NCBI GenBank assembly: GCA_014381545.1
Contig: JACNLL010000056.1
Span: 26,846-90,845 of the forward strand
DNA length: 64,000 nucleotides
DNA from: Candidatus Desulfaltia bathyphila
Lineage (GTDB): Bacteria; Desulfobacterota; Desulfobacteria; Desulfobacterales; ETH-SRB1
Direction: 5' to 3'
A program made the translations under genes and the position numbers. This document shows positions 11,567 through 33,103 of the stretch, in pieces (the stretch's first letter is position 1; the number at the start of each line of letters is the position of its first letter). The notes under the pieces were generated by a model. The model worked only from the letters and a program-made list of their open reading frames with translations, did no database searches and had not been told where the DNA came from.

Positions 11567-13021
11567 TTATCCTGTTATCCTGTCTGATTTTTCCTTTTGC
11601 TTTTGAGGCGCAATTTTGCTGAAATCTATTCTTTTGAATTCAGAAACAATTATATAAGAGATAACCAATTGTATCATAATGGTAAATGGTTTGATGAGGA
11701 TGTTGAAATAATAGAAAATTAAAAAAAGGGCTGCATATAGAAATACAAGCTGTAAAAGGACAGGCGCAAGACGCTGCCGTGTTTCAGAAAACAAAAGAAA
11801 AAATATTCTTAAGCCATAGCTTCTGTCACGCATGGATTTGAATGAGTTGTAAGAGCCTTTGATAATTGGTATCTTAAGAAACGCATTGCCGAACTTGGTA
11901 ACAAGCGCCACGCTGGAGATATAACTAACCGCCCTTTTTATGAGCGGTAATTCGTGGCGGCAATAAAACAGGTATGTATAAAAAAAAGAAGCAAAAAATA
12001 TTAGAAGATAATAAGAGGTTCCCGCAATTTCATTAATGAAATTATTATAGGCCATATTCAGAAACAGGTTTGCGTGAATCATTATTCCGCTGACATAGCC
12101 GAATAGCGGGACCAGCTTATTGTCGCCAAGGCCTGTGGCCGTTGCAGCAATAAATACAACTTTATCATTAAAAAAACGACCGGGCACACGACCAGCCCAG
12201 ACATCGTAAAACGATATTTCTCTTATTTTGTATGTATTATCAATATTTACAAACGCTCTGCAATGCTTATCAACAGGAATTGCTGTCTTGCCTGTTATTA
12301 CCCTGTTGTTTTTAATTCTTATCTTAGAGCGCGGGATATTATTTATGCTTCTAAATACCTCAAGCGATATTGTCGGATAGAGCCTGTCGCGTAATTTGAA
12401 AAGGATCGGCATCTTCCTTAATATCCCATCATTATCCGGATATGCATTCGCGAGGCCTATTCCTTTCAGGGAAGAAAGCACAAAAGGAGCCATTGATTCA
12501 AAACCGTTTTCGCTTACAAATTTCATGTCCTGTTTGCCGGAGATATTGTCTGCAAGCGGTTTGAACATTTGTTTTGATCGATCATGAGCAGACCCGAAAA
12601 CAACCGAAAAGACCGGCCCCTTTTTCATAATTTCAGAAAACCGCCTGTCCACATCCGGATCATCATGGGGATCACCAAAAAAGATGTCGTAAGCCACCGC
12701 GGCGGGTTTGCCTTTAAGTATATTTGCAAGCAGATCTATGTGATATCTTCGATACCTGGAAGGATTATAAGCGCCGAGCCTGTTTAAGGTTCTGTCGTCG
12801 ATCCCGACAATAACGACATTGCTCTGAACGGCCTTTTTATTCTCGTTGAGCCGCTCCCGGATTAACAAAAATTGAGAATAAAGGGTATTGTCTATCTGTG
12901 TGAGTATGTTGTAGGCAATGCCTTTAAACAGAATAGAAATAAAGAGAACGGAAAATCCCACAACAGCAAGGGAAAAAATAATGCTATATTTTTTGTATGT
13001 TGAATGGCGAGATTCCAGCAT
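11567..13021 (-). CDS. CHASE2-domain membrane protein without recognisable output domain
   Basis: N-terminal TM, then VVIVGIDDRTLNRLG...AAVAYDIFFGDP (CHASE2-like), then several C-terminal TM helices. No cyclase or kinase motifs. Confidence 0.65.
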   Translation of the reverse strand: MLESRHSTYKKYSIIFSLAVVGFSVLFISILFKGIAYNILTQIDNTLYSQFLLIRERLNENKKAVQSNVVIVGIDDRTLNRLGAYNPSRYRRYHIDLLANILKGKPAAVAYDIFFGDPHDDPDVDRRFSEIMKKGPVFSVVFGSAHDRSKQMFKPLADNISGKQDMKFVSENGFESMAPFVLSSLKGIGLANAYPDNDGILRKMPILFKLRDRLYPTISLEVFRSINNIPRSKIRIKNNRVITGKTAIPVDKHCRAFVNIDNTYKIREISFYDVWAGRVPGRFFNDKVVFIAATATGLGDNKLVPLFGYVSGIMIHANLFLNMAYNNFINEIAGTSYYLLIFFASFFYTYLFYCRHELPLIKRAVSYISSVALVTKFGNAFLKIPIIKGSYNSFKSMRDRSYGLRIFFLLFSETRQRLAPVLLQLVFLYAALFLIFYYFNILIKPFTIMIQLVISYIIVSEFKRIDFSKIAPQKQKEKSDRITG

Positions 13022-13043: not shown

Positions 13044-13775
13044 TCATGTATGATCATTGTCACGAGCCATATTCCATCTTATCCATTGATCTTCCATAAT
13101 GCTGTTAATATTGAAATCTTTTTTTTCATATTTTCCATTTGAATCGATTGTAATCTGCTGAAAGGCTTTTACAATTTCTACCCACCTTTCCATGGACACC
13201 GGATGCGGTCCGGCTATTGGCTTAGGCTCTAATATAGAAGCATCCGGCTTAGGTTTTGGCTTATCAAATAAAGCGCTCCAGGTTGCCACAACCCCCTTAT
13301 GGACACTGATTCGCGTCTGTTCATCATCTGTATCAACCCTGAACTTTGTTCCGCGTATTGCGCAAACAGCTTTATTAGTTCTGACCTTAAAGCTGTCAGA
13401 TTTTGCAAGGATCTTGCGGGCGTTTAACCACATTTTCCCTGAAGACAGAAATAAGGAAACTTCTTTAGCGGTTTTGCTTACCATACATTTTTCAAATTGC
13501 TGGAAGGAATTTTCATCCATTCTAACAAGAGTGCCGTCTTCAAGGGTAATTTCACAGCGTGATTCCGCCTCTGTCCTGATTTGATCACCTTGATGGATTT
13601 TCATATCAAAATCCGCATTAACCCAGGCGGTTTTGTCATGAGAAACAAATACATCTCCCATCATAAATGTTACAGCGCCGGCTACTTGCCGGTTTGGCCC
13701 TGCAAATGACGGAAAAGAAGCCAGGCACAAACATATAACCAAACTTATTTTAGATAATTTTTTCATTTTAAGCAT
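13044..13775 (-). CDS. FecR-domain exported protein
   Basis: Signal peptide. GAVTFMMGDVFVSHDKTAWVNADFDMKIHQGDQIRTEAESRCEITLEDGTLVRMDENS matches the FecR pattern. Confidence 0.6.
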   Translation of the reverse strand: MLKMKKLSKISLVICLCLASFPSFAGPNRQVAGAVTFMMGDVFVSHDKTAWVNADFDMKIHQGDQIRTEAESRCEITLEDGTLVRMDENSFQQFEKCMVSKTAKEVSLFLSSGKMWLNARKILAKSDSFKVRTNKAVCAIRGTKFRVDTDDEQTRISVHKGVVATWSALFDKPKPKPDASILEPKPIAGPHPVSMERWVEIVKAFQQITIDSNGKYEKKDFNINSIMEDQWIRWNMARDNDHT

Positions 13776-13919: not shown

Positions 13920-14041
13920 AATATGTTATCTGCCTTTCCCTTTTAGGCAACACAATACCTGATATTGTAATTTAGGACACAAGGGGATTATTGATTTTAA
14001 TTCCTAAATTCCTGAATCCCTTAATTCCTAAATCCATCACT

Positions 14042-16285
14042 CTACTTGGTTTTCATGGTAAATGCCCCATCCCAATCTTTTGGAGGGGGTGTGATTTTAT
14101 ATTCATCACACCTGAGAAGCATGGCTTTACTTGGACTATCGTCAGGCGTCAACTCCAATGCTACCTTAAAAAAACTTCCGGCTTTTTCCCAATCCTGATT
14201 TCTGTATGCATAAAGGCCGTTGGTGTAATTTTCTATTGTCTTACTCATGCGTTCATCAATATCTTTTGGATAACCTAAAAGCTGATAAACCGTTACCGGT
14301 TCTTTTTTCCCCACAACATTTATCGAATCAATTTCCCTTGCCATTATTTTATTGCCGGCTGCCCTGTAAGTCGTTTCACTAATCAGCGTGTAAATTCCGT
14401 ATATTTTGTTAACCCCTTCCAGCCTTGCAGCAATGTTAACCGTATCTCCCATCATTGTATAGTCCATGCGTGTTTTTGATCCCATGTTGCCCACAACAGC
14501 CGCACCCGTGCAAAGACCGATCCGCATATAAAGTTCCGGCTTGCCTGATATTCTCCAGCCTTCTCTTAGTTCAGACAGCCTTTTTTGCATGTCAATGCAA
14601 GCCATGCATGCTATTTCTTCCTGATTTTCAAGCTCGTTAGGGGCTCCAAAAAATGCGATTATAGCATCACCTTCAAATTTATCCACCGTTCCTTCATATT
14701 TAAGGATTATGCTTGTCATTTCTGTAAGGAATTCGTTTAACAGTTCAACCAGCTCCTTTGGAGTCAGTCCTTCGGAAATGCTTGTAAAACCCTGGATGTC
14801 TGAAAAAAACGCTGTAATTACACGTTCTTCACCACCCAACACAAGCTTTTCAGGAGACTCGATAAGCTGTTTGACAACCGTGGGGGCAAGATAAGTAGAA
14901 AAAGCATTTTTGATAAATCTTTTTTGCCTTGACTCTGTAAAATATTTGTATGCGGTTATACTGATATATACTAAAATTATTACGGTCAGAGGATAAACAA
15001 GGTTGAGAATTAAGCCCTTTTGAGAAAATAGATACTGACACAGAAATATATGGCCGATAAACAATGAGAAAGCGGCTGCAGCGCCTGATATGCCGCCTGC
15101 TTTAGGGAGCACAAACCCGAGGATAAGTCCGGCAACAATTATTGCCATGATGTCAAAAATAGCGGCCCAGGCCGGCTGATACATAAAATCCTTTGAAAGG
15201 ATGCTGTCTGCGACATTTGCATGGATTTCAACACCTGGAAAAACAGTTCCAAATGGAGTAACCCTTAAATCATATATTCCGACAGCCGTGGCGCCTACTA
15301 TTACAATTTTGTCTTTCACAACAGTATCGGCTATATTGTTATTTAATATATCTGTAACCGGTATATGAGGAAAGGTTTTCTCTGCTCCTCTGTAATTTAT
15401 CAAAATTCGTCCCAGCTCATCTGTCGGTACCGCTAATTTCCCGATTTGCACTCTTTCCACGCCATATTCACCAATATTCATTGAAATCGGACTTTCTAAA
15501 TAAGCGCTGACAGTAATCAGCGACAAAGGAGCGTACAACGTCTCCATGTACTTTAAGATACCTGGCATCCATCGCACAACCCCGTCTTTGTCAGGCAACA
15601 TATTGAAGAATCCACAATAATCGGTTGCGGATGAAATAATTTCTATATTAGATTGAGGTGTTCCGGCTTCAATAAGCGCTATATTCTGAGCAGATCCGGA
15701 AGCATAACGTATAAATTTATACTTGGAACCTGAAATGTTATCCTGGTGAATGCTGATTTCGTTTTCGCTGATATGACTTGATTCAGTGGAATCCATGTGG
15801 AAAAAATATCCCAGCACTATCTTGGCAGTGGAATTTCTTATAGCATCGGCAAGGAGTTGATCGTTGTTTGCATGCTTTTTTAGATTTTTCAGGTAGTTGT
15901 CAATTTCCTTTTTTCGAATATCGTGATTGTGAATTGTGCGTTGTATCTCATTTATGGTGTTTACAATTTTTTTATCATCAGGCTCCAAAAATCCGATATC
16001 AAATGCTATTACCCTGGCGCCGGCTTTTGACAGCTTTGTAACAAGATTTGCGATTTTTGACCTTGGCCATACCCACTTTCCCTCTTTACTAATGCTTTTT
16101 TCATCAATAACTGCCAGAACCACATCAGGGCCCGGGGAAATTTGTCCTCTGGCCTCAAATCTTAAATCAATGGTTTTTAATTCCATTAGATCAAGAAAGG
16201 ATATCCCTTGCAAATAGGCAAGGATTCCGATGAATATGGCAAACATAGAAATGAGAAGAGGATAGAGTAAAGCGATTTTTTTCAT
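14042..16285 (-). CDS. CHASE2-sensor class III adenylate/guanylate cyclase
   Basis: TM, then a CHASE2 region (VVLAVIDEKSISKEG...VIAFDIGF), TM cluster, then cyclase core ITAFFSDIQGFTSISE...KFEGDAIIAFFGAP...GTAVVGNMGS. Start moved to MKKIALLYPL. Confidence 0.85.
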   Translation of the reverse strand: MKKIALLYPLLISMFAIFIGILAYLQGISFLDLMELKTIDLRFEARGQISPGPDVVLAVIDEKSISKEGKWVWPRSKIANLVTKLSKAGARVIAFDIGFLEPDDKKIVNTINEIQRTIHNHDIRKKEIDNYLKNLKKHANNDQLLADAIRNSTAKIVLGYFFHMDSTESSHISENEISIHQDNISGSKYKFIRYASGSAQNIALIEAGTPQSNIEIISSATDYCGFFNMLPDKDGVVRWMPGILKYMETLYAPLSLITVSAYLESPISMNIGEYGVERVQIGKLAVPTDELGRILINYRGAEKTFPHIPVTDILNNNIADTVVKDKIVIVGATAVGIYDLRVTPFGTVFPGVEIHANVADSILSKDFMYQPAWAAIFDIMAIIVAGLILGFVLPKAGGISGAAAAFSLFIGHIFLCQYLFSQKGLILNLVYPLTVIILVYISITAYKYFTESRQKRFIKNAFSTYLAPTVVKQLIESPEKLVLGGEERVITAFFSDIQGFTSISEGLTPKELVELLNEFLTEMTSIILKYEGTVDKFEGDAIIAFFGAPNELENQEEIACMACIDMQKRLSELREGWRISGKPELYMRIGLCTGAAVVGNMGSKTRMDYTMMGDTVNIAARLEGVNKIYGIYTLISETTYRAAGNKIMAREIDSINVVGKKEPVTVYQLLGYPKDIDERMSKTIENYTNGLYAYRNQDWEKAGSFFKVALELTPDDSPSKAMLLRCDEYKITPPPKDWDGAFTMKTK

Positions 16286-16398
16286 AAGCAAAACCGTATA
16301 GGATGAGACATGTTCAATTTTGTTGACCTGTATGATTTTTATATTGTAATACTTGCTGAAAGTCAACAATACGCAACAAGTAACGAGTAACGAGCAAT

Positions 16399-17175
16399 AT
16401 GTATCAAATAGCGGGTTACATAGGCAGAAAAACCTTAAAATCTGTCAACCATATTCTGGATCTATTTGCCTTTACTTACAGAATACTCGATCTGATCCTT
16501 CAAAGACCAAAAGAAGGTAGAGTTCTTGTCAGAAGAGTTGTTCTGGAACAGATATATTTTACGGCTGTGCAAGCCCTTCCCCTGCTTATTCCGATCGCTC
16601 TTATTGTTGGGAGCATGCTTATTATACAATTTGCCAAGATCTCTAATCAATACGACATAGGCACAACAATGGTGCTGTTAATTGTGAGAGAATTAGGCCC
16701 CGGTATTACAGCTCTTTTGGTGATATTGAGATCAGCTACTTCAGTAACTATAGAGATCGGCTACATGAAGATTTTTCATGAAATAGATACGATTGAAATG
16801 GCAGGCATTAATCCCATACGAACAATTTGTCTGCCAAGATTGATAGGGATCACATCCGCCATACTTTGTCTTTTTATCGTTTTTGACCTGGTGTCCATTA
16901 TCGGAGGTTATGGAGTAGTATGGGTCTTTACACATATTTATTTAGGCGACTTTCTTGGACAGATTGCAAAAGCCGTAACTCCGACAGATATTATTGTAGG
17001 AATTGTAAAAGCCCTGTGTTTTGGAATTATTATTACCGTAACATGTCTCTATCACGGATTCAGCATAGAAAAAAATATTACAGGCCTGCCGGTAGCAACA
17101 TCAAAAGCAGCCATTGAGTGTTTTTTTTACTGTCTGGTGATAAATGTCATTATATCAATAATATTTTACATATAA
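16399..17175 (+). CDS. mlaE: MlaE-family ABC transporter permease
   Basis: 258 aa with multiple TM helices. The N-terminal cytoplasmic segment and EQIYFTAVQALPLLIPIALIVGSMLI are typical of MlaE/TTG2B permeases. Confidence 0.75.
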   Translation: MYQIAGYIGRKTLKSVNHILDLFAFTYRILDLILQRPKEGRVLVRRVVLEQIYFTAVQALPLLIPIALIVGSMLIIQFAKISNQYDIGTTMVLLIVRELGPGITALLVILRSATSVTIEIGYMKIFHEIDTIEMAGINPIRTICLPRLIGITSAILCLFIVFDLVSIIGGYGVVWVFTHIYLGDFLGQIAKAVTPTDIIVGIVKALCFGIIITVTCLYHGFSIEKNITGLPVATSKAAIECFFYCLVINVIISIIFYI

Positions 17176-17178
17176 AGT

Positions 17179-17260
17179 ATTGAGGAATTGCGAATTGAGG
17201 GATTGAGGGATTAAAATTAGTAGAATACCTTTAAATCCTAAATTCCCCAATTCCTAAATA
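17179..17260. repeat. Word-built hairpin (GAGGAAT/GAGGGAT versus ATTCC/ATCC)
   Basis: attgaggaattgcgaattgagggattgagggattaaa faces tttaaatcctaaattccccaattcctaaata, with a 15-nt loop. Confidence 0.6.
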
Positions 17261-17312
17261 TCTTTCTGTCTTGGTGGCTGAACTATTATGGTTTTGTTTG
17301 TTAAGGATTTAA

Positions 17313-17978
17313 ATGAAGTTAATCGAGCTTTCAGATTATACACTTGCTCCAATTGGTCAAGGAAACGGCCTTAACCAATTCTATTTTGACCTGTCAAAGG
17401 GGGATGTATGTTCCATACAGGCAGATCTGCCGGATGACGCACACCTGCTTCTAAAGGCTATTGCAATGCTTGAGCATCCAACAGAGGGCGCTTATCGATT
17501 TATGGGGAAAAAAATTAATTTTTCAGACCAGAGAAATCTTCTTCCATATAAGAAAAAAATAGGTTATATTACTATAGACGCATCGATGATCAGCAATATG
17601 AGTATCAGGGAAAATCTTCTATTGATGAGATACTATTTTGAAAATTCACTTTCCCTTGATATAAAGGATAATGTCAAAAACTTATGCGCTGTTTTCGATA
17701 TTTATGACAAACTGGATATGCGTCCTGGTGAACTCAGGCCGACGGAGCTGCGAAGCGCCATTGTAATCAGAGAGCTTGCCAAGTCGCCTGACATACTGCT
17801 GTTTGAGCGGCCTGAGGATTTCATCAGGCATGAAAAATTTGATCTCTTTGTTAAGCTCTTTAAAGAAATGTTGTTAGCCGGACTCCCCGTTGTTTTTATT
17901 TCTTATCACACTGATTTTGTTAAAGAGTTTTCAAACAGGAATATACTTATTTCAGGCGGAAACTTGATGGCGTCGTAA
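17313..17978 (+). CDS. ABC nucleotide-binding-domain homologue with all catalytic motifs degenerate (pseudo-ATPase, MlaF position)
   Basis: Length and order match an NBD. Walker A position reads ADLPDDAH (no G/K/S/T). Signature LSGGQ position reads LRPTELRS. Walker B reads ILLFERP (DE to ER). H-loop His is retained (SYHTD). Confidence 0.7.
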   Translation: MKLIELSDYTLAPIGQGNGLNQFYFDLSKGDVCSIQADLPDDAHLLLKAIAMLEHPTEGAYRFMGKKINFSDQRNLLPYKKKIGYITIDASMISNMSIRENLLLMRYYFENSLSLDIKDNVKNLCAVFDIYDKLDMRPGELRPTELRSAIVIRELAKSPDILLFERPEDFIRHEKFDLFVKLFKEMLLAGLPVVFISYHTDFVKEFSNRNILISGGNLMAS

Positions 17979-18050
17979 AAAAGTCTCATCTACTGCGTTG
18001 CAGTGATTTTTACTTAGCCATCTATAGTAACATCTTGGACTTTTTACGAG
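17971..18050. repeat. REP-like inverted repeat (CGTAAAAAGTC type) between the NBD-like and MCE genes
   Basis: cgtcgtaaaaaagtc (17971-17985) pairs with ggactttttacgag (18037-18050). Related words occur at 9497-9506 and 26663-26675. Confidence 0.5.
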
Positions 18051-18093: not shown

Positions 18094-19092
18094 ATGGACT
18101 TAAATTTTAGCAAAAAAGAAAAAACAGTTGGAACATTTATAATCTGCATCATAGTTATACTGCTGACTACTGTGGTGATTATCGGCAGAGGTAAAGACTG
18201 GTTCAAAACATATATTATATATTATACTACTTTTGACGAAAGTTATAATCTTAAAGAAGATGCTGCTGTAAAACTATTTAAAGCAGATATAGGAAAAGTA
18301 AAAAAAATTATACTTGTTGAAAACAAAGTTAAGGTTAAGCTGGCTATTTTAGAGGAATATTCTTCCAGAATAAGAAGCGATTCTGTTGCAATTGTGGAAA
18401 GCCCGACATTTATCGGGTCTGAATATATTTCCATTAAACCAGGAAGCGCCGACAGCCCCCTGATACCCGAGGGCGGAGAAATCAATTCCACGGCAAAAAA
18501 ATCAATATCAGACCTCATGTCAGAGTTTCAGGTTGAAGAAACAGCTAAAAAGGTTATCGGGATGGTCCAGGATATCTCAGAAATAACGCAAATAATGCGC
18601 GATCCCAATGGCCCTTTTTTTACAACCGTCAACAACTTAAACAAAACTGTTTCTCATCTTGAAGCTATTACCGGTGATATACAGGCCGGCAAGGGGACTG
18701 CCGGCAGTATACTAAAATCCAGGGAAGTCCTGCAAATCATACTTGATGATCTTGACAAAGTAACTCAGATTCTGGAAAGCATTACCGAGGCATCTTCAAA
18801 AACACCTGAAATAACAAATAAGGTTCAGGATAATCTTGCGACAATAAAGAAGGTTGGAGAGGAAGTATTGGATAGCATCTCAAGCATTAAAAGGATCTTG
18901 AAAGAGGTGGAAGAAGGGAGCCATGATATACCGGAGGTTACGCGATCTACAAAAAGAGGAATTAACGAAATCAGAGATGGAGTAGAAAACATAGATAAGG
19001 TCGTTGATTCGCTTAAGAAAAATTTTTTGATAAAGCCGAATCTTCCGCCCGAACCAAAAGGCAAAAATATTGACGCCGGCTTGCGGCAATAA
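18094..19092 (+). CDS. MCE/MlaD-domain protein with long helical C-terminal extension
   Basis: One N-terminal TM. MCE-like beta region (YTTFDESYNLKEDAAVKLFKADIGKVKKIILVENKVKVKLAI). About 200 aa of heptad-like helical sequence follows to the C-terminus. Confidence 0.75.
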   Translation: MDLNFSKKEKTVGTFIICIIVILLTTVVIIGRGKDWFKTYIIYYTTFDESYNLKEDAAVKLFKADIGKVKKIILVENKVKVKLAILEEYSSRIRSDSVAIVESPTFIGSEYISIKPGSADSPLIPEGGEINSTAKKSISDLMSEFQVEETAKKVIGMVQDISEITQIMRDPNGPFFTTVNNLNKTVSHLEAITGDIQAGKGTAGSILKSREVLQIILDDLDKVTQILESITEASSKTPEITNKVQDNLATIKKVGEEVLDSISSIKRILKEVEEGSHDIPEVTRSTKRGINEIRDGVENIDKVVDSLKKNFLIKPNLPPEPKGKNIDAGLRQ

Positions 19093-19115: not shown

Positions 19116-20240
19116 ATGTCGATGAATTACAAGAAACACATCTTAAAATTATCAGCAGGTTTAATAGTAATTGCAATGCTTGCATGGTTTGGTTGCGCCG
19201 CAAAGACCAGTGTAAGCAGAATCAAGCCTGCCGAAGTTTCTATGGGCGGCATCCGAACACTTGCCCTGCTTAAGTTTGAAGGCCGGTTCGGTGAAACTGT
19301 GCGCAGCGATTTCTATAATAAATTAAGCGCTGTGCCGCACTTCAATCTTATTGACATCTCAAAGACAAATGCCCTGGATCGGGTTATCTATGATCAGGTA
19401 GATGATCCAAGATTTTTTCCCGACCTCGAAGATCTTCATGCAGATGGAGTAATTACCGGGCGGGTAACCGCCAACATAAATGATATGCGTGGTTTTGATC
19501 AGGTACAGATGCAGGAAGGCACAGGACGATATAAAAAAGAGAAGAACATTTTTGGAAAATGGGTGGACGTGGAAATCAAAAAGACAGTGCTCAGACCGGT
19601 GCCCTATGTCATACGCCAGGCTTCTCTAACCACCGATTTCAAAGTATTCAACCTGAAAACAAAGCAGATTATAGCAACTGGCAAGGTCACGGAAAATTAC
19701 AATCAAAAATTTGGCGGTGATAAGGAATATGCTCTTTCTATTTTAGGAGGGATGAAGTTAAGTCAGTTGCCGGCGGGAAATCAGACATTAAATGAGCTAT
19801 CAGCCAATGTTGCGTCTCAGCTTGTCGCAAAAATTTCTCCAACCGAGGTTATTGAAACCATAGAATTTTATGACGGAGGAAAATTTGGCTATGGTGGTCA
19901 TGATATGATAAAACGCGGCATAGAATTCGCCAAGCGTGGATTATGGGACGAGGCAAAAGCGATCTGGCAGGATGTAATCAAGGCTGAACCGAACAACTCG
20001 GCAGCCTATTATAATTTGGGTGTGGCCCATGAATTTATTGGCAACCTCGAAAATCTTCAGATCGCAAGAACAATGTATAAAAAGGCGCTCAAATACGGGG
20101 ATAACGAACTTTACATGAATGCTCTGGCAAGAATTCAGTCTGCAATCAGAGACCGCCAGAAATATGAACAACAAAAAAATCTGCTGAAGCAAACTCCGGT
20201 TAAAAAAACACAGGAAGAAAAAGGGGTACGGATATATTAA
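19116..20240 (+). CDS. Lipoprotein: LpoB/DUF799-like alpha/beta module plus C-terminal TPR
   Basis: Lipobox WFGC. IRTLALLKFEGRFGETV...ADGVITGRVTA resembles the TVAILPF...DAVILGTI pattern of the 915-aa protein. C-terminal TPR (GLWDEAKAIWQDVIKAEPNNSAAYYNLGVAHEFIG). Confidence 0.5.
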   Translation: MSMNYKKHILKLSAGLIVIAMLAWFGCAAKTSVSRIKPAEVSMGGIRTLALLKFEGRFGETVRSDFYNKLSAVPHFNLIDISKTNALDRVIYDQVDDPRFFPDLEDLHADGVITGRVTANINDMRGFDQVQMQEGTGRYKKEKNIFGKWVDVEIKKTVLRPVPYVIRQASLTTDFKVFNLKTKQIIATGKVTENYNQKFGGDKEYALSILGGMKLSQLPAGNQTLNELSANVASQLVAKISPTEVIETIEFYDGGKFGYGGHDMIKRGIEFAKRGLWDEAKAIWQDVIKAEPNNSAAYYNLGVAHEFIGNLENLQIARTMYKKALKYGDNELYMNALARIQSAIRDRQKYEQQKNLLKQTPVKKTQEEKGVRIY

Positions 20241-20251
20241 TTTAAGGAGGT

Positions 20252-21442
20252 ATGATGGCTTTGAAAAACAAAAAAATTATGATGGCATGTCTTGTTTTGG
20301 GAGTTATATTACTTTTTGTATCAACCGGTTACAGCAAAATGGTGACGGTTGTAGGGCAGGGAATGGATCGTAAAAGCGCTATTGCTGATGCTCAGCGGGC
20401 TGCAGTTGAACAGGGCATAGGGGCTCTCATCGATTCCAAAACCAGGGTTGCGAACTTTGAGGTGCTGCAGGATAGGATTTATTCAAGGGCAAGCGGTTAT
20501 GTAACTAATTATAATATATTGTCTGAAGGAAAAAGTCCGGACGGTTCAATATACACTGTAAGCATGCGGGCTGACGTACAAACCGCTTCGATTAAAAATG
20601 ATTTAAAGGCGATCGGGATTCTAATGGCACAGATCGGCAACCCCCGATTTATGGCGATTTATCTTCCCGAAACCAGAAGTTCGATGCACAGGGATTCCAG
20701 GGTGGTCAGGGCCGCCGAGCAGGCAATTAACGGAGTCTTTGCCAGAAAAGGCTTTATAGTTCTGGACAAAATGTTCGTTAATAATGTTTACAGCGAGATA
20801 GAGCAAGCCGGCCGGATTGATGTGGATATGGATAACCTTTCCGCACTTGCCTTAAAATATAAGGCAGACCTGCTTCTTGTATATGATGTGCATGCAGCAA
20901 GCAAGACCGGTGGATCAAGCAGGTATTTTGGCGGCGTAATTGTTGAAATAGCATTGCGTGCCGTTGCTCCGGCCACTGCTGATCTTATAGCGCAAAAATC
21001 GGGGGATCTGTATGTAAAAACCATGAAAGCAGCAGGAAACTATTATGAAAATATGCAGGCTGCAAAGGTTGCGGATAAATTGGGGAAAGCGATTGCCGAT
21101 GCTTTAATTGAAGATACACTGGCTTATTTTGAGCGTGCTGTTCACGCTGGAACCCGTTTTGATTTATGGTTTAGAAACTTTTCAGAACAGGAAACCTATA
21201 TAATCGTTGATGTAATTGAGGGAATGACTGCGTTTAAGGACAAGCATATTAGAAATGAATCGCCTGGAAATTTTCAGCTTGATGTGAACTACCAGGGAAG
21301 AAAATTTGATTTTAAGCGGGAACTTTACAGGGGCTTGAAAGCGCAGGGCATCCTGTTTGATACCCAGCAGGCCAAGGGGAATCGTTTTCTGCTTTTCAAA
21401 AAAGGAAGCGACAATCCATTTGGCGCGATTAATATTAATTAA
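20252..21442 (+). CDS. Exported FlgT-like protein (LPP20/FlgT-N-like module plus alpha/beta module plus C-domain)
   Basis: Signal peptide. AIADAQRAAVEQGIGALIDSKTRVANFEVLQDRIYSRASGYVTNYNIL...YTVSMRADV. Paralogous to 21561..22688. Confidence 0.45.
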   Translation: MMALKNKKIMMACLVLGVILLFVSTGYSKMVTVVGQGMDRKSAIADAQRAAVEQGIGALIDSKTRVANFEVLQDRIYSRASGYVTNYNILSEGKSPDGSIYTVSMRADVQTASIKNDLKAIGILMAQIGNPRFMAIYLPETRSSMHRDSRVVRAAEQAINGVFARKGFIVLDKMFVNNVYSEIEQAGRIDVDMDNLSALALKYKADLLLVYDVHAASKTGGSSRYFGGVIVEIALRAVAPATADLIAQKSGDLYVKTMKAAGNYYENMQAAKVADKLGKAIADALIEDTLAYFERAVHAGTRFDLWFRNFSEQETYIIVDVIEGMTAFKDKHIRNESPGNFQLDVNYQGRKFDFKRELYRGLKAQGILFDTQQAKGNRFLLFKKGSDNPFGAININ

Positions 21443-21456
21443 CTGTAACTATTCAG

Positions 21457-21558
21457 GTTGGTTAGGCTGTAGGCTAAAGGCTGTTGGTTTTTGCGGATTG
21501 TTCGTATGATCATGGATGATTCTTTCCTAACAGCCTAAATGCCTATAGCCTATCTACC
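21457..21558. repeat. Heptamer-periodic hairpin between convergent operons
   Basis: ggttggt/taggctg/taggcta/aaggctg (21457-21488) faces cctaaca/gcctaaa/tgcctat/agcctat (21526-21558). Loop is about 37 nt. Confidence 0.75.
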
Positions 21559-21560
21559 TG

Positions 21561-22688
21561 TCAAAGCAGATTACAGTCGACTCTGTCCGGCGCAAAATCA
21601 ATCACTTCAAGGCTGTTTTTGCCAAAATTCAAGCCATCCAAAAGTTCGGCAAGCTCTTCACTCGTACCCTTAAAGCGCAGGTCCAGCACCAGCAGCCCCC
21701 CGGTTTTATTCCATCCTTCCTTTTTGCTGGTTACAACTTTGTCCATAATTTCAATACTTGATGCAATCAATCTGTATTGCTGAAAGGATGTTATGCCGGT
21801 TATATGCAGCTTAAGGGGGGCGCCGTTATTAAGAAACTCCTGAAATGAGTCGGTAATGGTATCAACCAAGTATTCGTCAACAGCCTTTTGAACCGCTATC
21901 CGCAGAGATTTGCCTGCGCCGGTCAGCGGACTGATATGGACCGAAATCCCGTTTTTTACTATGGAACCAAGCAACAGCCCTGTCTGAGTTTGAATGACTT
22001 TCATCTGGAGACTCGCCTGAAGCGATTTAAGACCGGATTTTGGATAGGCCTCGCCGATATCTTCAACTACGGCTTTGCCCACTATCACATACTGAGATCC
22101 AAAGTCCAATCCCAGTATTCTGGCTGCGGCAATATTCCCGGCTAAAGCCTGTCTGCTTTGGTCAAGGCTCTTTATTTTTTCAATCTGCGCCCTGTCAACC
22201 AGATCAAAGCCCTTGGCCGCGAGCAGAGAGGACATCTCGGTTTCGGCTAAACACATGCCCACATCGTCCATGCCGATATATTCTTCTTCTATTAAAATCA
22301 TAAGCTTGGGCCGCTCCATGCTGTCAAGCAAAATTTTCATGGCCAAAAGGTCGTCTTTTATTTTGTCCATTGAAACAGTTGCGCTCAATCTGACAGTGTA
22401 AAGGCCTTCAGCCTTTTCTTCCCCCAGGATTGTGAAGCGGGTGATATAGCCCTGTGTCCGGGACATAATCCTGTCTTTTTTGATTGCAAAATTTTCCACC
22501 TCGGTCTTAGAGTGGATAAAGACCCCAACAGCCAGCTCCACGGCCGAACGCTGAGCCTGACGTATGGCATCCTCTCTGGAAAGAAAGCTGCTTCCCTCAA
22601 CTTCAACTACTTTTTCTGATGCAATAGCACCTGTTGTATAAGCAAACAGTATGGCCAGTGTTGCTATAATCGGAAAACATCTGTTCAT
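21561..22688 (-). CDS. Exported FlgT-like protein, paralogue of 20252..21442
   Basis: Signal peptide. AIRQAQRSAVELAVGVFIHSKTEVENFAIKKDRIMSRTQGYITRFTIL...YTVRLSATV aligns by eye with the paralogue along the N-module. Confidence 0.45.
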   Translation of the reverse strand: MNRCFPIIATLAILFAYTTGAIASEKVVEVEGSSFLSREDAIRQAQRSAVELAVGVFIHSKTEVENFAIKKDRIMSRTQGYITRFTILGEEKAEGLYTVRLSATVSMDKIKDDLLAMKILLDSMERPKLMILIEEEYIGMDDVGMCLAETEMSSLLAAKGFDLVDRAQIEKIKSLDQSRQALAGNIAAARILGLDFGSQYVIVGKAVVEDIGEAYPKSGLKSLQASLQMKVIQTQTGLLLGSIVKNGISVHISPLTGAGKSLRIAVQKAVDEYLVDTITDSFQEFLNNGAPLKLHITGITSFQQYRLIASSIEIMDKVVTSKKEGWNKTGGLLVLDLRFKGTSEELAELLDGLNFGKNSLEVIDFAPDRVDCNLL

Positions 22689-23392
22689 TGATTTAATCCT
22701 TGCACATTATCAACCTGTTGTTTATAGGCCGGGTCAAGTTCTATGCTCTTTTTAAACAACTCTCTGGCCTGTGTCCTGTTATTTCTGTCCAGAGCATCCA
22801 GCCCTTTTGAAAAATACAGGGCAGCATTAATATCGCTTTCACCCTTGCCGGTTTTAATCTTTAAGGCCAGGTTAAGAGAATGAGCGATTTTTTGAGCTAA
22901 ATTCCGCTCCAATTCCATAAAATTATCTACCTTACCTGTAATTGATTCAGCCATTATAAGCTCACTGGTTTCGACCTTTATGATCCGGGCATCAATACGG
23001 ACACTTTTCCCAAGGACCACAAAGGAACCAAAGGCTATGGTCTGAGCGCCTAAAATTTTGCCCGCCCTGATAGCTGTAGCCTCATCCACGCTTCCGGTCT
23101 GGCTTAAAGCAATTTCCTTCAAAAGGGCTTGTATCTTACCGCGTTCAATTAATTTTAAAGCGCTGCCGCTTTTGTTAAGATCGGAAATAAGCATGGCGGA
23201 AAGCCCCTTGCTTAATGGAGCAAACAGATCCGGATCTGTTACGGAGTTGTTTTCAAAAGGCAAAATAGCCAGGGTTTTCGGAATTCGGTCAAGCCGGGCT
23301 GGTTTTAATCTTTCTTCAGCTCTCTGGGCGCCTGCACATCCCAATGCAATACAAAAGACCGCCAGTATCACAACAAATCTCAAAATTTTCAT
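22685..23392 (-). CDS. Lipoprotein: CsgG/FlgO/LpoB-like module plus C-terminal TPR-like helix pair
   Basis: Lipobox ALGC. PKTLAILPFENNSVTDPDLFAPLSKGLSAMLISDLNKSG...LIERGKIQALLKEIALSQTG...AGKILGAQTIAFGSF is the CsgG-type pattern. Its stop overlaps the next gene start (22685-22688). Confidence 0.5.
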   Translation of the reverse strand: MKILRFVVILAVFCIALGCAGAQRAEERLKPARLDRIPKTLAILPFENNSVTDPDLFAPLSKGLSAMLISDLNKSGSALKLIERGKIQALLKEIALSQTGSVDEATAIRAGKILGAQTIAFGSFVVLGKSVRIDARIIKVETSELIMAESITGKVDNFMELERNLAQKIAHSLNLALKIKTGKGESDINAALYFSKGLDALDRNNRTQARELFKKSIELDPAYKQQVDNVQGLNQ

Positions 23393-23445
23393 GAAAATAC
23401 CTTTATTCTTTTTTATGGAGTCTACCTGACTCCTTTACTTGCCTA

Positions 23446-24653
23446 TCAGCCGCCACCGCCGGCCGCCATTGACGCTGCTTCTGCATCGGCGGCTTCTTGT
23501 GCGGTTTCGGCTTCATCAACAGATGCCTCGGCATGGCTCGCCATCTGAGCTGCCGTTATGCTGGCTAATGCGCCAATGTCGGGTGACGAAGCGCCTGGGC
23601 AAGAGCTGCTGCCGTCCACAGCCATATCGAAGTTCGGGTCCTCTTTCACAGCTTTGGCAAATAAATCCTTGGCAGCTTCCCAATTTCCGGCATCCAAAGC
23701 GTCAAGGGCCTCTCCATAATAGATAAAGGCATTGTAAACAGTGGTATGCCTATAGCCTTGCTTTCCTCCGGAGTCAGTATAATTCCCAGAATCCCGGCTA
23801 TATCCTTTACTATGGCAATGGGTAATTCATAGAACTTCTCCTGTTCCACGGTAATTGAACTGGTGCCCTTGATCTCTCCTGTTCCGGATGATGTCAAAGA
23901 GGTGGTTGCATGAATGCTGCTCAGTGTCAGGTTCCCTACAATCAAGTTTTCCGCTCCCAGCAGTCTGCCGACCCTGGGCGCTGTATTCTGGTCAACTATT
24001 CCGGTCTGGCCGAGCTTCATCTCTGCCAACAGGGCCTGCAAACGCATTCGTTCAACAACCTTAAGCGACTTGATCTTGGACAGATCTGTAATCACCATTG
24101 CGGCCAGGCCTTTTTGAAAAGCGCGCAAACTCTTGTCCGGAGAAAGATCCTGGAAGTAACATACAGCCACTGTGTTTGCATCCGGCTGAACGGTTGCAAG
24201 ACTTTTTTCTTCTGCCATAGCCTTTTTAGCAGCCCGCTGGCTTGCCGCAATTTGCACCAGGGTTGAAAGACGCCTGATTTCTTCCTCAACCAGCGGCTGT
24301 TCTTTATTCCTGTAAAGTTGCCATGTTTCTATGGCCTTATCGAACTTCTCCTTGTTTAAATAGGCCATGCCCAGATATAAAACAGCATAAGGTTCGCCGG
24401 GTTCAGCCTGAAGCGTTTTCTTAAACTCTTCAATAGACTTGTCCAGTTGGCCTTTTTTCAAATAGGCAAAACCCAGTCTGCTTCTTACCCATGCAGCTTC
24501 AGGCTTTTTGGCCAGATAATCCTGATAAATGGTTATGGCTTCATCGTACTTCTTCTGGCTCATCTTTATATCAGCCTTTATGAGTCCGCAGCCTGTCAGC
24601 GATAAAACACCGATAAATATAATGCCCCATAAAAGATACTTTTTCATGGTCAT
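23446..24653 (-). pseudogene. TPR / CsgG-FlgO-like / TPR lipoprotein split by an apparent 1-nt frameshift near 23745-23760
   Basis: ORF 23646..24653 has lipobox LTGC, TPR, and NTVAVCYFQDLSPDKS...VERMRLQALLAEMKLGQTG. The frame then changes. The next frame is open from about 23828 and reads TVYNAFIYYGEALDALDAGNWEAAKDLFAKAVKEDPNF, matching the paralogue ALYFSKGLDALDRNNRTQARELFKKSIELDPAY. Confidence 0.55.
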
Positions 24654-31604: not shown

Positions 31605-32366
31605 TTATGTGTCAATTATTGACAACAGGATGCTCAGACAAATGACCCCAAAAAGGGTTATCCAGTCGCTTTTAGCTGATAAAAGGGCTTTGTTTGTCCG
31701 TTTTTCTGAGTAACACCTTGCTTCCATGGCAACGGCGAGTTTATCAGCCTTTTTAAAGGTTCTAATCATAAGCGGGATTATTAGTTTTATTAATCGATAC
31801 ACCGGATTTTTTCTGTTTTCCACTCCCCGTGATCGCTGCGCATCAATAGTCTCCCTTGCCTGGTCAAGAATAAGAGGAACAAAACGCATGATCAAGCTCA
31901 TCATGGTTGCAACCCTTTTCCCGGGAATAAATGGAAAAGGCATCAAAAACCACTCTACTGCGGTTCTGATGTCCGACGGTCTGGTTGTTGAAACAAATAT
32001 CAACCCAAACAAAACAACAATCAGAAGTCGCCAGCAAATAAGGGCTCCGTCATATATTCCCTGCCATGCAACAGCCGATTCTTTAAAATCAACTACAGGT
32101 GATGCGGAGGTAAACATGGCTCTAACTATAAATATAAAAACAAGCAGAACAAAAAAATAGCGAAGTTCTTTTAAAATTGATTTAAATGGCAGACAACTTA
32201 TTAATATTGCATAAAAAATCACAAGGGTTAAAACAGAAAGGGCCGACGGATAAGCTTTAAAACTCGAAATACTGATTAAAACAAAAGATAAAATTTTAAA
32301 TCGTACATCTAAAGTATGCAGCAATGAAGTCCCTGGACGAAAATGAAAAGCGGTCAATTCAGCCAT
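31605..32366 (-). CDS. bioN: ECF transporter transmembrane (T) component, BioN/EcfT/CbiQ family
   Basis: MAELTAFHFRPGTSLLHTLDVRFK start is typical of CbiQ/EcfT. Multi-TM. Follows the ECF ATPase and bioY. Start moved from 32399. Confidence 0.75.
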   Translation of the reverse strand: MAELTAFHFRPGTSLLHTLDVRFKILSFVLISISSFKAYPSALSVLTLVIFYAILISCLPFKSILKELRYFFVLLVFIFIVRAMFTSASPVVDFKESAVAWQGIYDGALICWRLLIVVLFGLIFVSTTRPSDIRTAVEWFLMPFPFIPGKRVATMMSLIMRFVPLILDQARETIDAQRSRGVENRKNPVYRLIKLIIPLMIRTFKKADKLAVAMEARCYSEKRTNKALLSAKSDWITLFGVICLSILLSIIDT

Positions 32367-33103
32367 GATTCTATCTCCATGCCCAGACGGGAAGCGCACG
32401 GCTCTCTTACACCAAACGCTTCAACATCCTTAATTATCATTTCAGGCGCATTGTCCATTACAACCTTTCCATCACTTATTATTAGCAGTCGGTCGGCATG
32501 TGCTATAACCTTTTCCAGATCATGCGTTGCTATCAGTATGGTATGGCCCGCCTTGTGCAGCAAAAGAGTCTGATGTAAAAGCTGCCTTACTCCCGGGTAG
32601 TCAAGATCTGAAAACGGCTCGTCAAAAACCAGAATCCTTGGCTCCATAGCAAGAATACCGGCCACGGCAAGCCTCCGCTTTTCTCCACCCGAAAGCAGGT
32701 GTGGTCTTTGATCGGCAATATCTATCAAGTCTACAACTTCCAATGATTTTATTACCCGCCTTTTAACCTCGCATTCATTAAGACAGAGATTTTCCGGGCC
32801 AAACGCGACATCATCAAATACTGTTTCACCTACTATCTGGCTGTCTGCATCCTGAAAAACCATGCCAACCATCTGTCTTGCCCTTGGTATGTCCCGTGAT
32901 ACAGAAACTCCGCCCAGCCTGACCGCTCCTGTATCGGGCAAAAGAAGTCCGTTTAAATGCCGCAAAAAGGTGGTTTTGCCGGAACCGTTCCTGCCGGCAA
33001 TGACTACAAATTCCCCTTCTTGAATACTAAGGGTTATACCCTCTATGCCTATAGTTCCGTCTGAAAAGCGATGGCTGAGATTTGTTACTTCAATAATATT
33101 CAT
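32354..33103 (-). CDS. bioM: ECF transporter ATPase, BioM/EcfA/CbiO family
   Basis: Intact Walker A GRNGSGKTT, signature LSGGEKRR, Walker B ILVFDEP, H-loop ATHD. Start moved to MNIIEV because the longer ORF reads through a hairpin repeat. Confidence 0.85.
   Translation of the reverse strand: MNIIEVTNLSHRFSDGTIGIEGITLSIQEGEFVVIAGRNGSGKTTFLRHLNGLLLPDTGAVRLGGVSVSRDIPRARQMVGMVFQDADSQIVGETVFDDVAFGPENLCLNECEVKRRVIKSLEVVDLIDIADQRPHLLSGGEKRRLAVAGILAMEPRILVFDEPFSDLDYPGVRQLLHQTLLLHKAGHTILIATHDLEKVIAHADRLLIISDGKVVMDNAPEMIIKDVEAFGVREPCASRLGMEIESWLN

Follow-up and report, generated by a model that had tools for sequence, protein, structure and literature searches.

The product of the open reading frame at positions 17313–17978 (+ strand; ATG start, 221 residues and a stop codon), here called X, is a homologue of ABC transporter nucleotide-binding domains (NBDs) that sits in the MlaF slot of an MCE-type transporter cassette and has lost its ATP motifs, as a first-pass annotation had read by eye and as three alignments and a family profile now bear out. 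Our best explanation, held with somewhat better than even confidence, is that X is a non-catalytic descendant of an MlaF-type subunit that now serves as a structural cap for MlaE, in a complex that would be without an ATPase drive of its own. Throughout, the window denotes the entire 64,000-nucleotide stretch of Candidatus Desulfaltia bathyphila DNA that was analysed.

Genomic setting of X

In the window, X is the second of four genes read in the same direction (+ strand). These are mlaE (16399–17175), which encodes the 258-residue permease of an MCE-type ABC transporter (PF02405, E 4e-51), X itself, a gene for a long MCE/MlaD protein of 332 residues (18094–19092; PF02470, E 3e-13; TIGR00996), and a gene for a 374-residue DUF6340/TPR lipoprotein (19116–20240; PF19867, E 1e-9, together with TPR matches). 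A Pfam scan of the window genes finds X to be the sole NBD of this operon, in agreement with the first-pass annotation. There is no MlaA, MlaB or MlaC nearby, and the core comprises three genes in the order E-X-D; the neighbouring genes examined in the window and the related loci include no STAS/MlaB gene. Wherever a related locus has enough flank, the mlaE-X-mce order is present, with the MCE gene downstream of X, and the pairwise distances of the three cassette genes correlate (r ~0.9 over 50 loci).

For MlaE, the best PDB matches are MlaE from P. aeruginosa (7ch8_G; E 4e-25) and from E. coli (6xbd_G). Its TM2-TM3 coupling helix, the position of which we took from a published structure (PMC7790496), falls at ~residues 111–145 and is canonical, with 'lrsatsvtieigymkifheidtiemaginp' pairing with 'gragsaltaeig.mkateqlss.em..vdp' of the PDB MlaE. 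Among 55 cassette MlaE sequences, this segment is the peak of conservation. The MCE protein, whose best PDB match is Mce1B (8fed_B), is laid out as an N-terminal TM helix, an MCE domain (~residues 42–117), and an alpha-helical extension of ~180 residues. A single-sequence AlphaFold2 model of it (pLDDT 49, and so usable for helix content only) has helices at residues 7–36 and 132–312, and no C-terminal beta-barrel is evident in this low-confidence model.

Further elements surround the core. The DUF6340/TPR lipoprotein is a semi-conserved fourth gene, found directly 3′ of mce in 13 loci that belong to two sub-clades, and its product is a possible candidate for an outer-membrane partner. Divergent from mlaE lies a gene for a CHASE2 adenylate/guanylate cyclase (14042–16369, − strand; PF05226, E 2e-61; PF00211, E 2e-22), which adjoins the cassette upstream in 12 loci (also two sub-clades) and is missing from most loci; we treat it as context only, outside the core cassette. 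The spacer between mlaE and X (17176–17312) carries an AAGGA ribosome-binding site before the ATG, as well as inverted repeats that form an imperfect pair of 8-bp-unit repeats at ~17180–17262. Elsewhere in the window the same 8-bp unit is scattered (13 matches versus 0 expected). A hairpin in this spacer was considered as a regulatory element and rejected, its stability relative to shuffled sequence not being significant (z = −1.76) and its unit belonging to the scattered 8-bp repeat family.

Former ATP site, fold and conserved surface

The motif columns of X were placed by HMMER alignment to PDB 4yms, by MAFFT alignment with the FtsE and BioM of the window, and by hmmalign with 150 library proteins; these three independent alignments concur, and the coordinates were verified by translation. 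At the former Walker A, or P-loop (17421–17444, + strand), GPSGAGKS is replaced by A37-DLPDDA-H44, which matches the ADLPDDAH of the first reading, with A43 in the Lys column and H44 in the Ser/Thr column. The consensus of the X family here is [AST]-D-S-P-D-D-A-H, and GxxGxGK[ST] is missing in every family representative that spans these columns. The Q-loop Gln, likewise called as lost, has given way to I88 (17574–17576, + strand), in a column that is S46/Q30/P14/T9 among 117 homologues. Where canonical NBDs have the LSGGE signature, X reads L141-RPTE145 (17733–17747, + strand), and the family follows the pattern L-[RNS]-[PS]-x-[DE].

The former Walker B, catalytic Glu, and D-loop lie together in I161-LLFER-PE-DFIR172 (17793–17828, + strand). 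In the first part of this segment (17793–17810), ILADE has become I161-LLFER166, again as had been read, which puts E165 at the position of the Walker B Asp (E80/D32 among 117 homologues) and R166 at that of the catalytic Glu (R in 95 of the 117). The residue that follows, P167, is invariant in the X family. The D-loop proves degenerate as well, DFIR standing in place of the canonical residues, so that SLD corresponds to F170-I-R172. One part of the first-pass annotation, namely that the H-loop His survives, was off by one column. In the former H-loop (17904–17909, + strand), the canonical His column holds Y198, and the H-loop must therefore also be counted as lost; H199, one column later, aligns with the Asp of 'THD' in FtsE. 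Neither column is conserved as His, with column 198 being Y61/R15/H12/N9 and column 199 being D82/N15/H10 (117 homologues).

Intact motifs were not found elsewhere in the protein, either in the three alignments or in a regular-expression scan of all open reading frames of the window, in which X shows no GxxxxGK[ST] or [LFY]SGG[QEM] anywhere along its length. Against the ABC_tran profile (PF00005), X scores 27.6 bits for a cut-off of 25, with only residues 46–164 matched and the motif columns degenerate, and its Pfam membership is thus marginal; for most X homologues a precomputed PF00005 match is absent. In the same window, FtsE (55099–55776, − strand) and BioM/EcfA (32354–33175, − strand) reach 115.9 and 102.4 bits, respectively, and both are intact. 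Sequence quality is accordingly not the cause of the degeneration, just as the first-pass annotation had argued from these two proteins. On sequence grounds, X is predicted not to bind ATP.

The same replacements extend across the family, which numbers at least 196 homologues. At 50% identity, 79 clusters have E ≤ 1e-30, and all of those that cover the motifs are degenerate; beyond them, scores drop steeply to canonical NBDs. Existing annotations call them 'ATP-binding cassette domain-containing protein', 'hypothetical', or 'ABC-type ATPase involved in cell division'.

Despite its marginal profile score, X is modelled by AlphaFold2 with a complete RecA-like core and alpha-helical subdomain (pLDDT 92.2, pTM 0.88). 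A Foldseek search with this model returned 1206 PDB matches at E ≤ 0.001, of which the best 50 are all NBDs, and the FtsE, MetN, MlaF, and MacB NBDs gave TM scores of 0.75–0.84 (FtsE 8ymc as the top match, TM 0.83; MlaF 6xgz_E, E 2.4e-17 and TM 0.77). Helices in the model start at P40 (DSSP H40-50) and P143, as the capping patterns S-P-D-D and x-P-x-[DE] would lead one to expect, and we suggest that the former Walker A has become a Pro/Asp helix N-cap instead of a Gly-rich anion hole. X stops at the NBD core, residue 221, with no C-terminal extension.

The top-conserved block of the X family comprises residues 80–113 (KKKIGYITIDASMISNMSIRENLLLMRYYFENSL; 17550–17651, + strand), which take in the former Q-loop (I88) and the helix that follows it, and which have the lowest mean entropy (1.61) among 67 divergent representatives. 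Helix alpha-1 is also among the most conserved parts. Across the same 67 representatives, K80, Y85, N95, N101, and L102 are nearly invariant, and across 103 close homologues L77, K80, Y85, N101, and L103 are invariant. In canonical NBDs, the region after the Q-loop is the groove in which the permease docks.

Descent, proposed role and alternative explanations

That X aligns with MlaF-type NBDs, as the first-pass annotation proposed, stands as far as synteny and nearest relatives are concerned, though direct sequence scores do not support it. MlaF was absent from the 55 PDB matches of the single X sequence, and from the best 60 of the 154 matches of the family profile. The best NCBIfam match was FtsE (61 bits), and the curated MlaF model NF008809 (cut-off 441 bits) was not among the 25 best NCBIfam families of X. 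An assignment of X to MlaF by sequence score was hence rejected, with FtsE, LolD, MetN, ArtP, PsdA, or OpuCA ranking highest, and Foldseek gave no discrimination among NBD subfamilies. The tie to MlaF comes solely from synteny and from the nearest relatives, which are NBDs inside MlaE-NBD-MlaD cassettes, several of them named MlaF by JGI.

Two sets of these relatives are of particular use. The first, group S, consists of Spirochaetota NBDs (e.g., P0241 in locus L063 and P0292 in L062) that keep Walker A, FQD, and DEP, and that have an unusual LSxGE signature and a variable H-loop. The second, group B, comprises 236-residue relatives (e.g., P0235 and P0303) in which the Walker A Lys is replaced by Arg (GxxGxGR[ST]), the catalytic Glu by Asp, and the H-loop His by Tyr, with SGG kept. 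The cassettes of both groups have the same gene order and a similar MCE length as the X cassette; whereas their NBDs keep the motifs largely or partly, X has lost all of them. The three therefore form a degeneration series, with the Spirochaetota largely intact, group B partly degenerate, and the X clade fully so. X and groups S and B have three derived features in common, namely ALISN..ENLxL, an insert of 4 residues that follows the Q-loop helix and in X lies within residues 80–113, and RP[AG] ahead of the signature. A neighbour-joining tree places group B as the sister of the X clade (49 of 60 bootstraps), a grouping that long-branch attraction may inflate. A TPR lipoprotein is also encoded downstream of MlaD in group S cassettes. 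Homology between these Spirochaetota lipoproteins and the DUF6340/TPR lipoprotein of the window was rejected, since none was detectable by BLASTP, and the two sets are analogous at most.

Tentatively, and at a little under an even chance, we propose that groups S and B and the Desulfobacterales clade mark successive steps by which an ancestral MlaEFD lipid system that bridged the envelope lost its motor. The end point would be an ABC transporter with a completely dead homodimeric NBD, kept as a structural clamp. The stages may have run from intact motifs, through binding without hydrolysis, to no nucleotide site at all.

As for what X does at present, the conservation of its groove suggests that two copies would dock on the MlaE dimer via the groove after the Q-loop, giving an assembly of MlaE2-X2-MCE6 of the 'minimal MlaEFD with long MlaD' type. 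The N-termini of the P-loop helix and the signature helix, which normally hold the phosphates of ATP, would now be capped by Pro and acidic residues; such caps would stabilise the fold of X without nucleotide and block ATP-driven dimer closure, so that the complex would have no ATP-powered cycle of its own. It might then serve as a passive, gradient-driven lipid conduit or as an envelope tether, with X either fixing MlaE in one conformation or presenting a cytoplasmic regulatory surface. In E. coli, the ATPase activity of MlaF is reported as required for Mla function, which accords with PMC5016091, and an ATP-independent MlaE machine would accordingly differ from that model. The first-pass annotation had left two outcomes, an ATPase encoded elsewhere or an NBD fold used as a static scaffold or regulator. 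Of these, the latter fits the data better, because of the conserved block at residues 80–113, the MlaE coupling helix, and the single NBD-like gene per cassette.

A related alternative, which we consider unlikely though deserving of some weight, is that X is a ligand- or signal-responsive regulator, whose acidic/His pocket (D38, D41, D42, H44, E165, E168, and D169) would bind a non-ATP ligand. It is equally unlikely, in our estimate, that such a ligand (e.g., a divalent metal or a second messenger) would control the dimerisation of X and hence the gating of MlaE. The replaced active-site residues are fairly conserved in close homologues (of 117, D38 in 98, D41 in 106, D42 in 89, A43 in 108, H44 in 96, E168 in 116, and D169 in 99), and this moderate conservation, seen as D38, D41, D42, A43, H44, E165, and R166, could mark a new ligand site rather than structural filling. 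Helix capping explains the Pro/Asp pattern equally well, however, and across 67 representatives of the broader family (50% identity), the positions of the former ATP site vary far more than the coupling groove. The group B pattern resembles binding without hydrolysis, and so hints at a sensing intermediate. The CHASE2 cyclase speaks for such a regulator as the divergent neighbour in 12 loci, and against it by its absence from most loci; profile scans of X revealed no recognisable cNMP- or metal-binding domain.

Rather improbable, in our judgement, is that the transporter is powered in trans, with an intact NBD (MlaF-type or other) encoded elsewhere either forming a heterodimer with X on MlaE or, in certain conditions, replacing it, and X acting as a placeholder or competitive regulator. 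Shared ATPases do exist for MCE systems, MceG/Mkl being the one that serves several mycobacterial mce operons (Mce1-4); those operons, however, have no NBD-like gene of their own, whereas every cassette examined (~55 genomes) has exactly one, located in the MlaF slot. MlaEFD genes occur widely among diderm bacteria, with duplications inside Gracilicutes (PMC10665443), which makes a second, canonical cassette plausible in these genomes. Nevertheless, no second MlaE or MlaF was present in ~700 kb of flanking DNA from ~60 related loci, and there is no orphan NBD in the window, where both intact NBDs adjoin permeases of their own (FtsX for FtsE, and CbiQ/BioY for BioM). The conserved groove block further suggests that X itself fills the docking sites of MlaE. 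Moreover, in the head-to-tail dimer of ABC proteins, a heterodimer of X with an intact NBD would carry two defective composite sites, since X has neither Walker A nor signature.

Very improbable is that X is still an ATPase by way of non-canonical residues. Its fold is complete, an acidic residue is kept at the Walker B Asp column (112 of 117 homologues have Glu or Asp), and an aromatic residue conserved in 114 of the 117, Y9, probably corresponds to the expected A-loop position. Yet the Gly, Lys, and Ser/Thr of Walker A have been exchanged for Pro and Asp, a change that would repel phosphate, the open reading frame contains no other P-loop, and the signature, catalytic Glu, Q-loop Gln, and H-loop His are all gone; the substituted residues are, in addition, variable across the family, unlike those of a catalytic site.

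Finally, that X is the decaying remnant of a pseudogene is effectively refuted, in that against a very weak Pfam score, a frameshift-split gene at the distant locus L059 (where the upstream mlaE is also absent), and a median dN/dS somewhat above that of its neighbours (0.21, with MlaE at 0.16 and the MCE gene at 0.13) stand intact open reading frames in 54 of 55 Desulfobacterales-type, species-level genomes (220–235 residues, down to 42% identity), a dN/dS range of 0.12–0.34 with dS up to ~2, nine invariant columns and 41 at ≥ 90% conservation (103 sequences), and a confident fold prediction. With its open reading frame intact in nearly every genome and a dN/dS of ~0.21, X is under purifying selection and is not a pseudogene; the orthologue comparison that had been called for to tell selection from decay thus came out in favour of the former. 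X evolves faster than MlaE, but we rejected this difference in rate as diagnostic of a loss of function, as the motif-intact Spirochaetota pair behaves alike (46% identity for the NBDs versus 69% for their MlaE).

Relation to known transporters

Among the known systems closest to the X cassette is MlaF in the MlaFEDB complexes of E. coli, A. baumannii, and P. aeruginosa (6xbd, 6xgz, and 7ch8). Like X, MlaF has the NBD fold and is encoded with MlaE and MlaD, and like MlaF, X presumably docks on the TM2-TM3 coupling helix of MlaE, which is conserved here; unlike MlaF, it is without any ATP motif. MlaF is also longer (~269 residues, versus 221 in X) and has a C-terminal 'handshake' extension. Both this extension and an MlaB/STAS gene are absent in the present case, which further differs in its long MlaD and its E-X-D gene order. 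In proteobacteria, the C-terminal extension wraps around the partner MlaF and contacts MlaB (PMC7790496).

Another close system is the minimal MlaEFD of Veillonella parvula, with its long, envelope-spanning MlaD (Grasekamp et al. 2023, PMC10665443), which likewise has a three-gene E-F-D core, without MlaA, MlaB or MlaC close by, and a long MCE protein with an alpha-helical extension. While the V. parvula MlaF resembles proteobacterial MlaF, the F slot in the window is taken by a dead NBD, and the MCE protein differs in that its model, of low confidence, shows no evident C-terminal beta-barrel. The form 'minimal MlaEFD with long MlaD' has been proposed as the ancestral and most common one (PMC10665443).

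X shares with the degenerate sites of TM287/288, TAP1/2, CFTR NBD1, and Pdr5 the retention of an NBD that has lost catalytic residues. In heterodimeric exporters, degeneration affects only one of the two composite sites, which retains Walker A and still binds ATP, while hydrolysis takes place at the other. To our knowledge, the degenerate NBDs described so far retain ATP binding and are partnered by an active site. X differs from such NBDs in that Walker A is absent and each cassette has one NBD-like gene, and because that gene is single, X would form a homodimer with both sites lacking Walker A and signature.

Systems without a motor offer a second comparison. PqiABC and LetAB (YebST) of E. 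coli are MCE tunnels across the periplasm that have no ABC ATPase dedicated to them, and their energy-independent mode matches what we propose for the X cassette. PqiA and LetA, however, are not MlaE-type permeases and have no NBD-like subunit, whereas the X cassette keeps the full ABC architecture with a seemingly dead motor. MceG/Mkl (8fed_H) is likewise an NBD that serves an MCE transporter, one whose MCE proteins form a needle-like assembly; Mce1B from that assembly is the best solved-structure match for the MCE protein of the window. MceG is intact and encoded apart from the mce operons, whereas X lies inside each cassette and is predicted to be inactive.

In the literature, we found no description of degenerate MlaF-type subunits or of fully dead NBDs in MCE systems. 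For a bacterial ABC transporter to retain a homodimeric NBD that is fully dead would be without precedent. If X is indeed such a dead NBD, kept as a structural clamp, an MlaE-MCE machine could do its work without any ATP cycle, and no ABC-type transporter would have been shown to do so before. In which direction Mla/MCE systems move lipids, and how they couple energy to it, is still under debate, and the X clade would, if so, provide a natural experiment on the part that the ATPase plays in MCE lipid transport and in setting its direction. MlaF surveys based on synteny (PMC10665443) would count X proteins as ATPases. As a natural variant in which the F subunit is predicted to be unable to use ATP, present in ~55 species and ~80 clusters at 50% identity, the X clade bears on the question of passive bridges, such as the Pqi, Let or YhdP-type systems, and together with its partly degenerate and motif-intact sisters it makes up a comparative series on ATP binding versus hydrolysis.

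The motif columns of a full-length NBD homolog

The ORF at 17313-17978 (+), here called X, opens with an ATG and runs for 221 codons before its stop. Its 5′ neighbor is the gene for a canonical MlaE permease (16399-17175, +; PF02405, E 4e-51) and its 3′ neighbor a long MCE/MlaD gene (18094-19092, +; PF02470, E 3e-13), after which come two more genes in this orientation, for a DUF6340/TPR lipoprotein (19116-20240, +) and a FlgT_N-like protein (20252-21442, +). Against Pfam ABC_tran, X barely passed at 27.6 bits (cut-off 25), whereas the window's other two NBDs scored far higher, these being FtsE (55099-55776, −; 115.9 bits), which adjoins its own permease FtsX, and BioM/EcfA (32354-33175, −; 102.4 bits), which adjoins its own permeases CbiQ and BioY. 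An AlphaFold2 model built from 103 homologs was confident (pLDDT 92.2, pTM 0.88), and Foldseek matched X along its full length with FtsE (8ymc, TM 0.83), MlaF (6xgz, TM 0.77), MetN, MacB, LolD, and MceG, so X is modeled as a complete NBD in which the RecA-like core and helical subdomain are both present. These structural matches did not tell the NBD subfamilies apart.

To assign the motif columns, we used three independent alignments, namely HMMER against PDB 4yms and MetN, a MAFFT alignment that included FtsE and BioM from the window, and 150 library proteins placed on the family profile by hmmalign. All three agreed, and the coordinates were verified by translation. Here, on the + strand, Walker A (GPSGAGKS) is replaced by A37-DLPDDA-H44 (17421-17444), the Q-loop Gln by I88 (17574-17576), the signature LSGGE by L141-RPTE145 (17733-17747), Walker B with the catalytic Glu (ILADE) by I161-LLFER166 (17793-17810; Glu in the Asp column and Arg for the catalytic Glu), and the D-loop SLD by F170-I-R172 (within 17817-17828). 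The loss of these five motifs, as the first-pass annotation had proposed, is thus borne out. Its claim that the H-loop His survives was, however, off by one residue, as Y198 occupies the His column and H199 (17904-17909 for the pair) aligns with the Asp of the FtsE "THD". Among 117 homologs, column 198 holds Tyr in 61, Arg in 15, His in 12, and Asn in 9, while column 199 holds Asp in 82, Asn in 15, and His in 10; so, as read from the alignments, every classical NBD motif is gone from X. The rest of the ORF contains no Walker A or signature motif either.

Distribution of the family and its three-gene cassette

A sequence search returned at least 196 homologs of X, down to about 49% identity and nearly all of 215-235 aa, and among the 1.84 billion representative proteins of a library its family accounted for 79 clusters at E ≤ 1e-30, past which scores fell sharply to ordinary NBDs. 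Walker A, the signature, and the catalytic Glu are absent in every library member that covers the motif columns. When one genome per species was searched, X was present in 55, all of them MAGs with no cultured host identified among them. Except for one Pseudomonadota-labeled MAG (locus L059), these are labeled Desulfobacterales, Thermodesulfobacteriota, or Delta-/Proteobacteria, and include Desulfobacteraceae, Desulfosarcinaceae, Desulfatitalea, Ca. Desulfatibia, Ca. Desulfaltia, Eth-SRB1, and Eth-SRB2. Of the 55 copies of the ORF, 54 are intact. In L059 (JAZDIE010000017, 6001-6652), a frameshift at a lysine run (KKK) splits X into two frames (6001-6288 and 6230-6652), and mlaE is missing 5′ of it while the MCE and TPR lipoprotein genes are intact, which reflects either real cassette decay or an assembly error.

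In every related locus with enough flank, mlaE lies directly 5′ and a long MCE gene directly 3′ of X, while the genes around them vary from locus to locus; the conserved unit is therefore a three-gene cassette. Pairwise distances of MlaE, X, and the MCE protein correlate at r ~0.9 over 50 loci, and the three are therefore inherited together. A second MlaE or MlaF was found in none of the flanks. The DUF6340/TPR lipoprotein gene directly follows the MCE gene in 13 loci, and a CHASE2 cyclase gene is the divergent 5′ neighbor in 12 loci from two sub-clades. Cyclic-nucleotide signaling may be linked to the cassette. In the window, this adenylate/guanylate cyclase (14042-16369, −) diverges from mlaE, and beyond it lie a FecR-like protein (13044-13775, −) and a second CHASE2 protein (11567-13021, −).

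Elsewhere around the cassette, a weak terminator-like hairpin with a T run (17991-18005; a stem of 6 pairs, 3 of them G-C) sits 13 nt past the X stop and 5′ of the MCE gene. The DUF6340/TPR gene is the first of a predicted envelope lipoprotein cluster (19116-24653), where the FlgT_N-like protein has a paralog on the opposite strand (21561-22688; 36-38% identical), followed by a CsgG-like plus TPR protein (22685-23392) and a 335-aa ORF (23646-24653, −) with a short region about 38% identical to homologs of the CsgG-like/TPR protein. Repeats of one family, built on the 8-bp unit (G/A)ATTGAGG, occur at 39940-40110, 14007-14027, and 17180-17262; they form a tandem array around 40 kb and an inverted pair within the mlaE-X spacer, with another copy 5′ of the cyclase gene, and the pattern GAATTGAGGGATTGAGGGATT with ≤3 mismatches has 13 matches in the window against 0 expected. 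The stability of the spacer hairpin was not significant. This spacer is 138 bp in the window and 93-345 bp in its close relatives (loci L005-L011), whereas in distant cassettes (L001, L003, and others) mlaE and X abut, overlap, or are at most ~160 bp apart, which suggests that repeat elements were recently inserted between the two genes.

Relationship to MlaF-type NBDs

Direct sequence scores did not indicate MlaF as the closest subfamily of X. Nonetheless, the best non-family matches of the X family profile include short NBDs with derived features common to X, these being ALISN..ENLxL following the Q-loop, an insert of 4 residues, and RP[AG] ahead of the signature. Using these matches as seeds for a new search and tabulating the motifs, we could define two groups. 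Group S (P0217, P0241, P0268, P0292, and others; loci L062 and L063) is from Spirochaetota, is ~247 aa long, and keeps Walker A, FQD, and DEP, with H, N, or Y at the H-loop and an unusual but consistent signature, LSxGE, whose second Gly is replaced by a variable residue. About one-quarter of these MlaF-type NBDs lack the H-loop His, and their cassettes end with a TPR lipoprotein. Group B (P0235, P0293-P0331; 236 aa, at least 24 clusters) carries GDRG[SA]GRST (Lys to Arg), FDLGG (Gln lost), VSGGVR, LLLDD[LM]T (Glu to Asp), and SSYDE (His to Tyr). This conserved clade is a putative intermediate that would bind but not hydrolyze ATP.

Both groups are housed in MlaE-NBD-MlaD cassettes, with the order MlaE, NBD, MlaD (327 aa), and TPR protein in L063, MlaE, NBD, a 395-aa MCE homolog, and TPR protein in L062, and MlaE (306 aa), NBD, MlaD, and FtsX at the group B locus of P0303. 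In a neighbor-joining tree, the X clade and group B were each monophyletic in 60 of 60 bootstraps and were sisters in 49 of 60, a value that long-branch attraction between degenerate sequences could inflate. The shared features, the cassettes, and the tree are thus best explained if X stands at the end of a degeneration series, in a lineage of MlaF type that belongs to the "minimal MlaEFD with long MlaD" class (Grasekamp et al., PMC10665443).

The former ATP site and a putative role on MlaE

The family consensus reads [AST]-D-S-P-D-D-A-H at the old P-loop and L-[RNS]-[PS]-x-[DE] at the old signature. In the AlphaFold2 model, the corresponding helices begin at P40 and P143, which therefore places Ser/Asn/Asp at the N-cap, Pro at N1, and acidic residues at N2/N3, a classical helix N-capping pattern. 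These are the helices whose N-termini, in an active NBD, grip the ATP phosphates from either side of the dimer. As a structural hypothesis, both helix ends in X would now be self-capped and negatively charged, which would stabilize the fold without nucleotide and speak against phosphate binding and ATP-glued closure. The residues replacing the ATP site are only moderately conserved, and variable in the wider family.

The lowest-entropy segment of X across 67 divergent representatives is instead residues 80-113 (mean 1.61 bits), comprising the former Q-loop and next helix, followed by helix α1 (L50, A51, T52, L53, and P56), R153-E154-K157, and P167. The groove that accepts the permease coupling helix in canonical NBDs is built from the Q-loop, the helix that follows, and helix α1. 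The cassette MlaE has a canonical TM2-TM3 coupling helix, which aligns confidently with the MlaE of P. aeruginosa and of E. coli (position from PMC7790496), and this is the most conserved part of 55 cassette MlaE proteins. From this conservation pattern, we infer that docking on MlaE is the function under constraint in X.

That X is rather a ligand- or signal-responsive regulator seems unlikely; an acidic/His cluster is fairly conserved among close homologs and a cyclase gene often adjoins the cassette, but the pocket varies across the wider family and X has no recognizable ligand-binding domain. Powering in trans by an intact NBD encoded elsewhere looks still less probable, as both composite sites of its heterodimer with X would be defective and the cassette always has its own NBD-like gene. 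We regard an unconventional ATPase as very doubtful. A pseudogene is scarcely conceivable, as X is under purifying selection (median dN/dS of 0.21, versus 0.16 for MlaE and 0.13 for the MCE gene; Nei-Gojobori, 28 pairs), with 9 columns invariant and 41 at least 90% conserved among 103 sequences. X does evolve 1.42-fold faster than MlaE, though we rejected this as a sign of lost function, since a motif-intact Spirochaetota pair behaves alike (46% identity for the NBD versus 69% for MlaE).

Known degenerate NBDs still have Walker A and bind ATP, and each is paired with an active site (reviewed in PMC7756269), whereas X has lost Walker A; our full-text literature search found no account of degenerate MlaF-type subunits, nor of an MCE/Mla system whose homodimeric NBD is fully dead. 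The best solved-structure match of the MCE partner is mycobacterial Mce1B, and its single-sequence model, a poor one (pLDDT 49), has an N-terminal TM helix and ~180 helical residues after the MCE domain, consistent with a periplasm-spanning needle. Returning to docking on MlaE, the overall mechanism toward which we lean slightly is that an X homodimer caps the MlaE dimer beneath the MCE hexamer. Here, X would neither bind nor hydrolyze ATP, leaving the complex without an ATP cycle of its own, and would either fix MlaE in one state or serve as a cytoplasmic platform, such that the complex may act as a passive lipid conduit or envelope tether.
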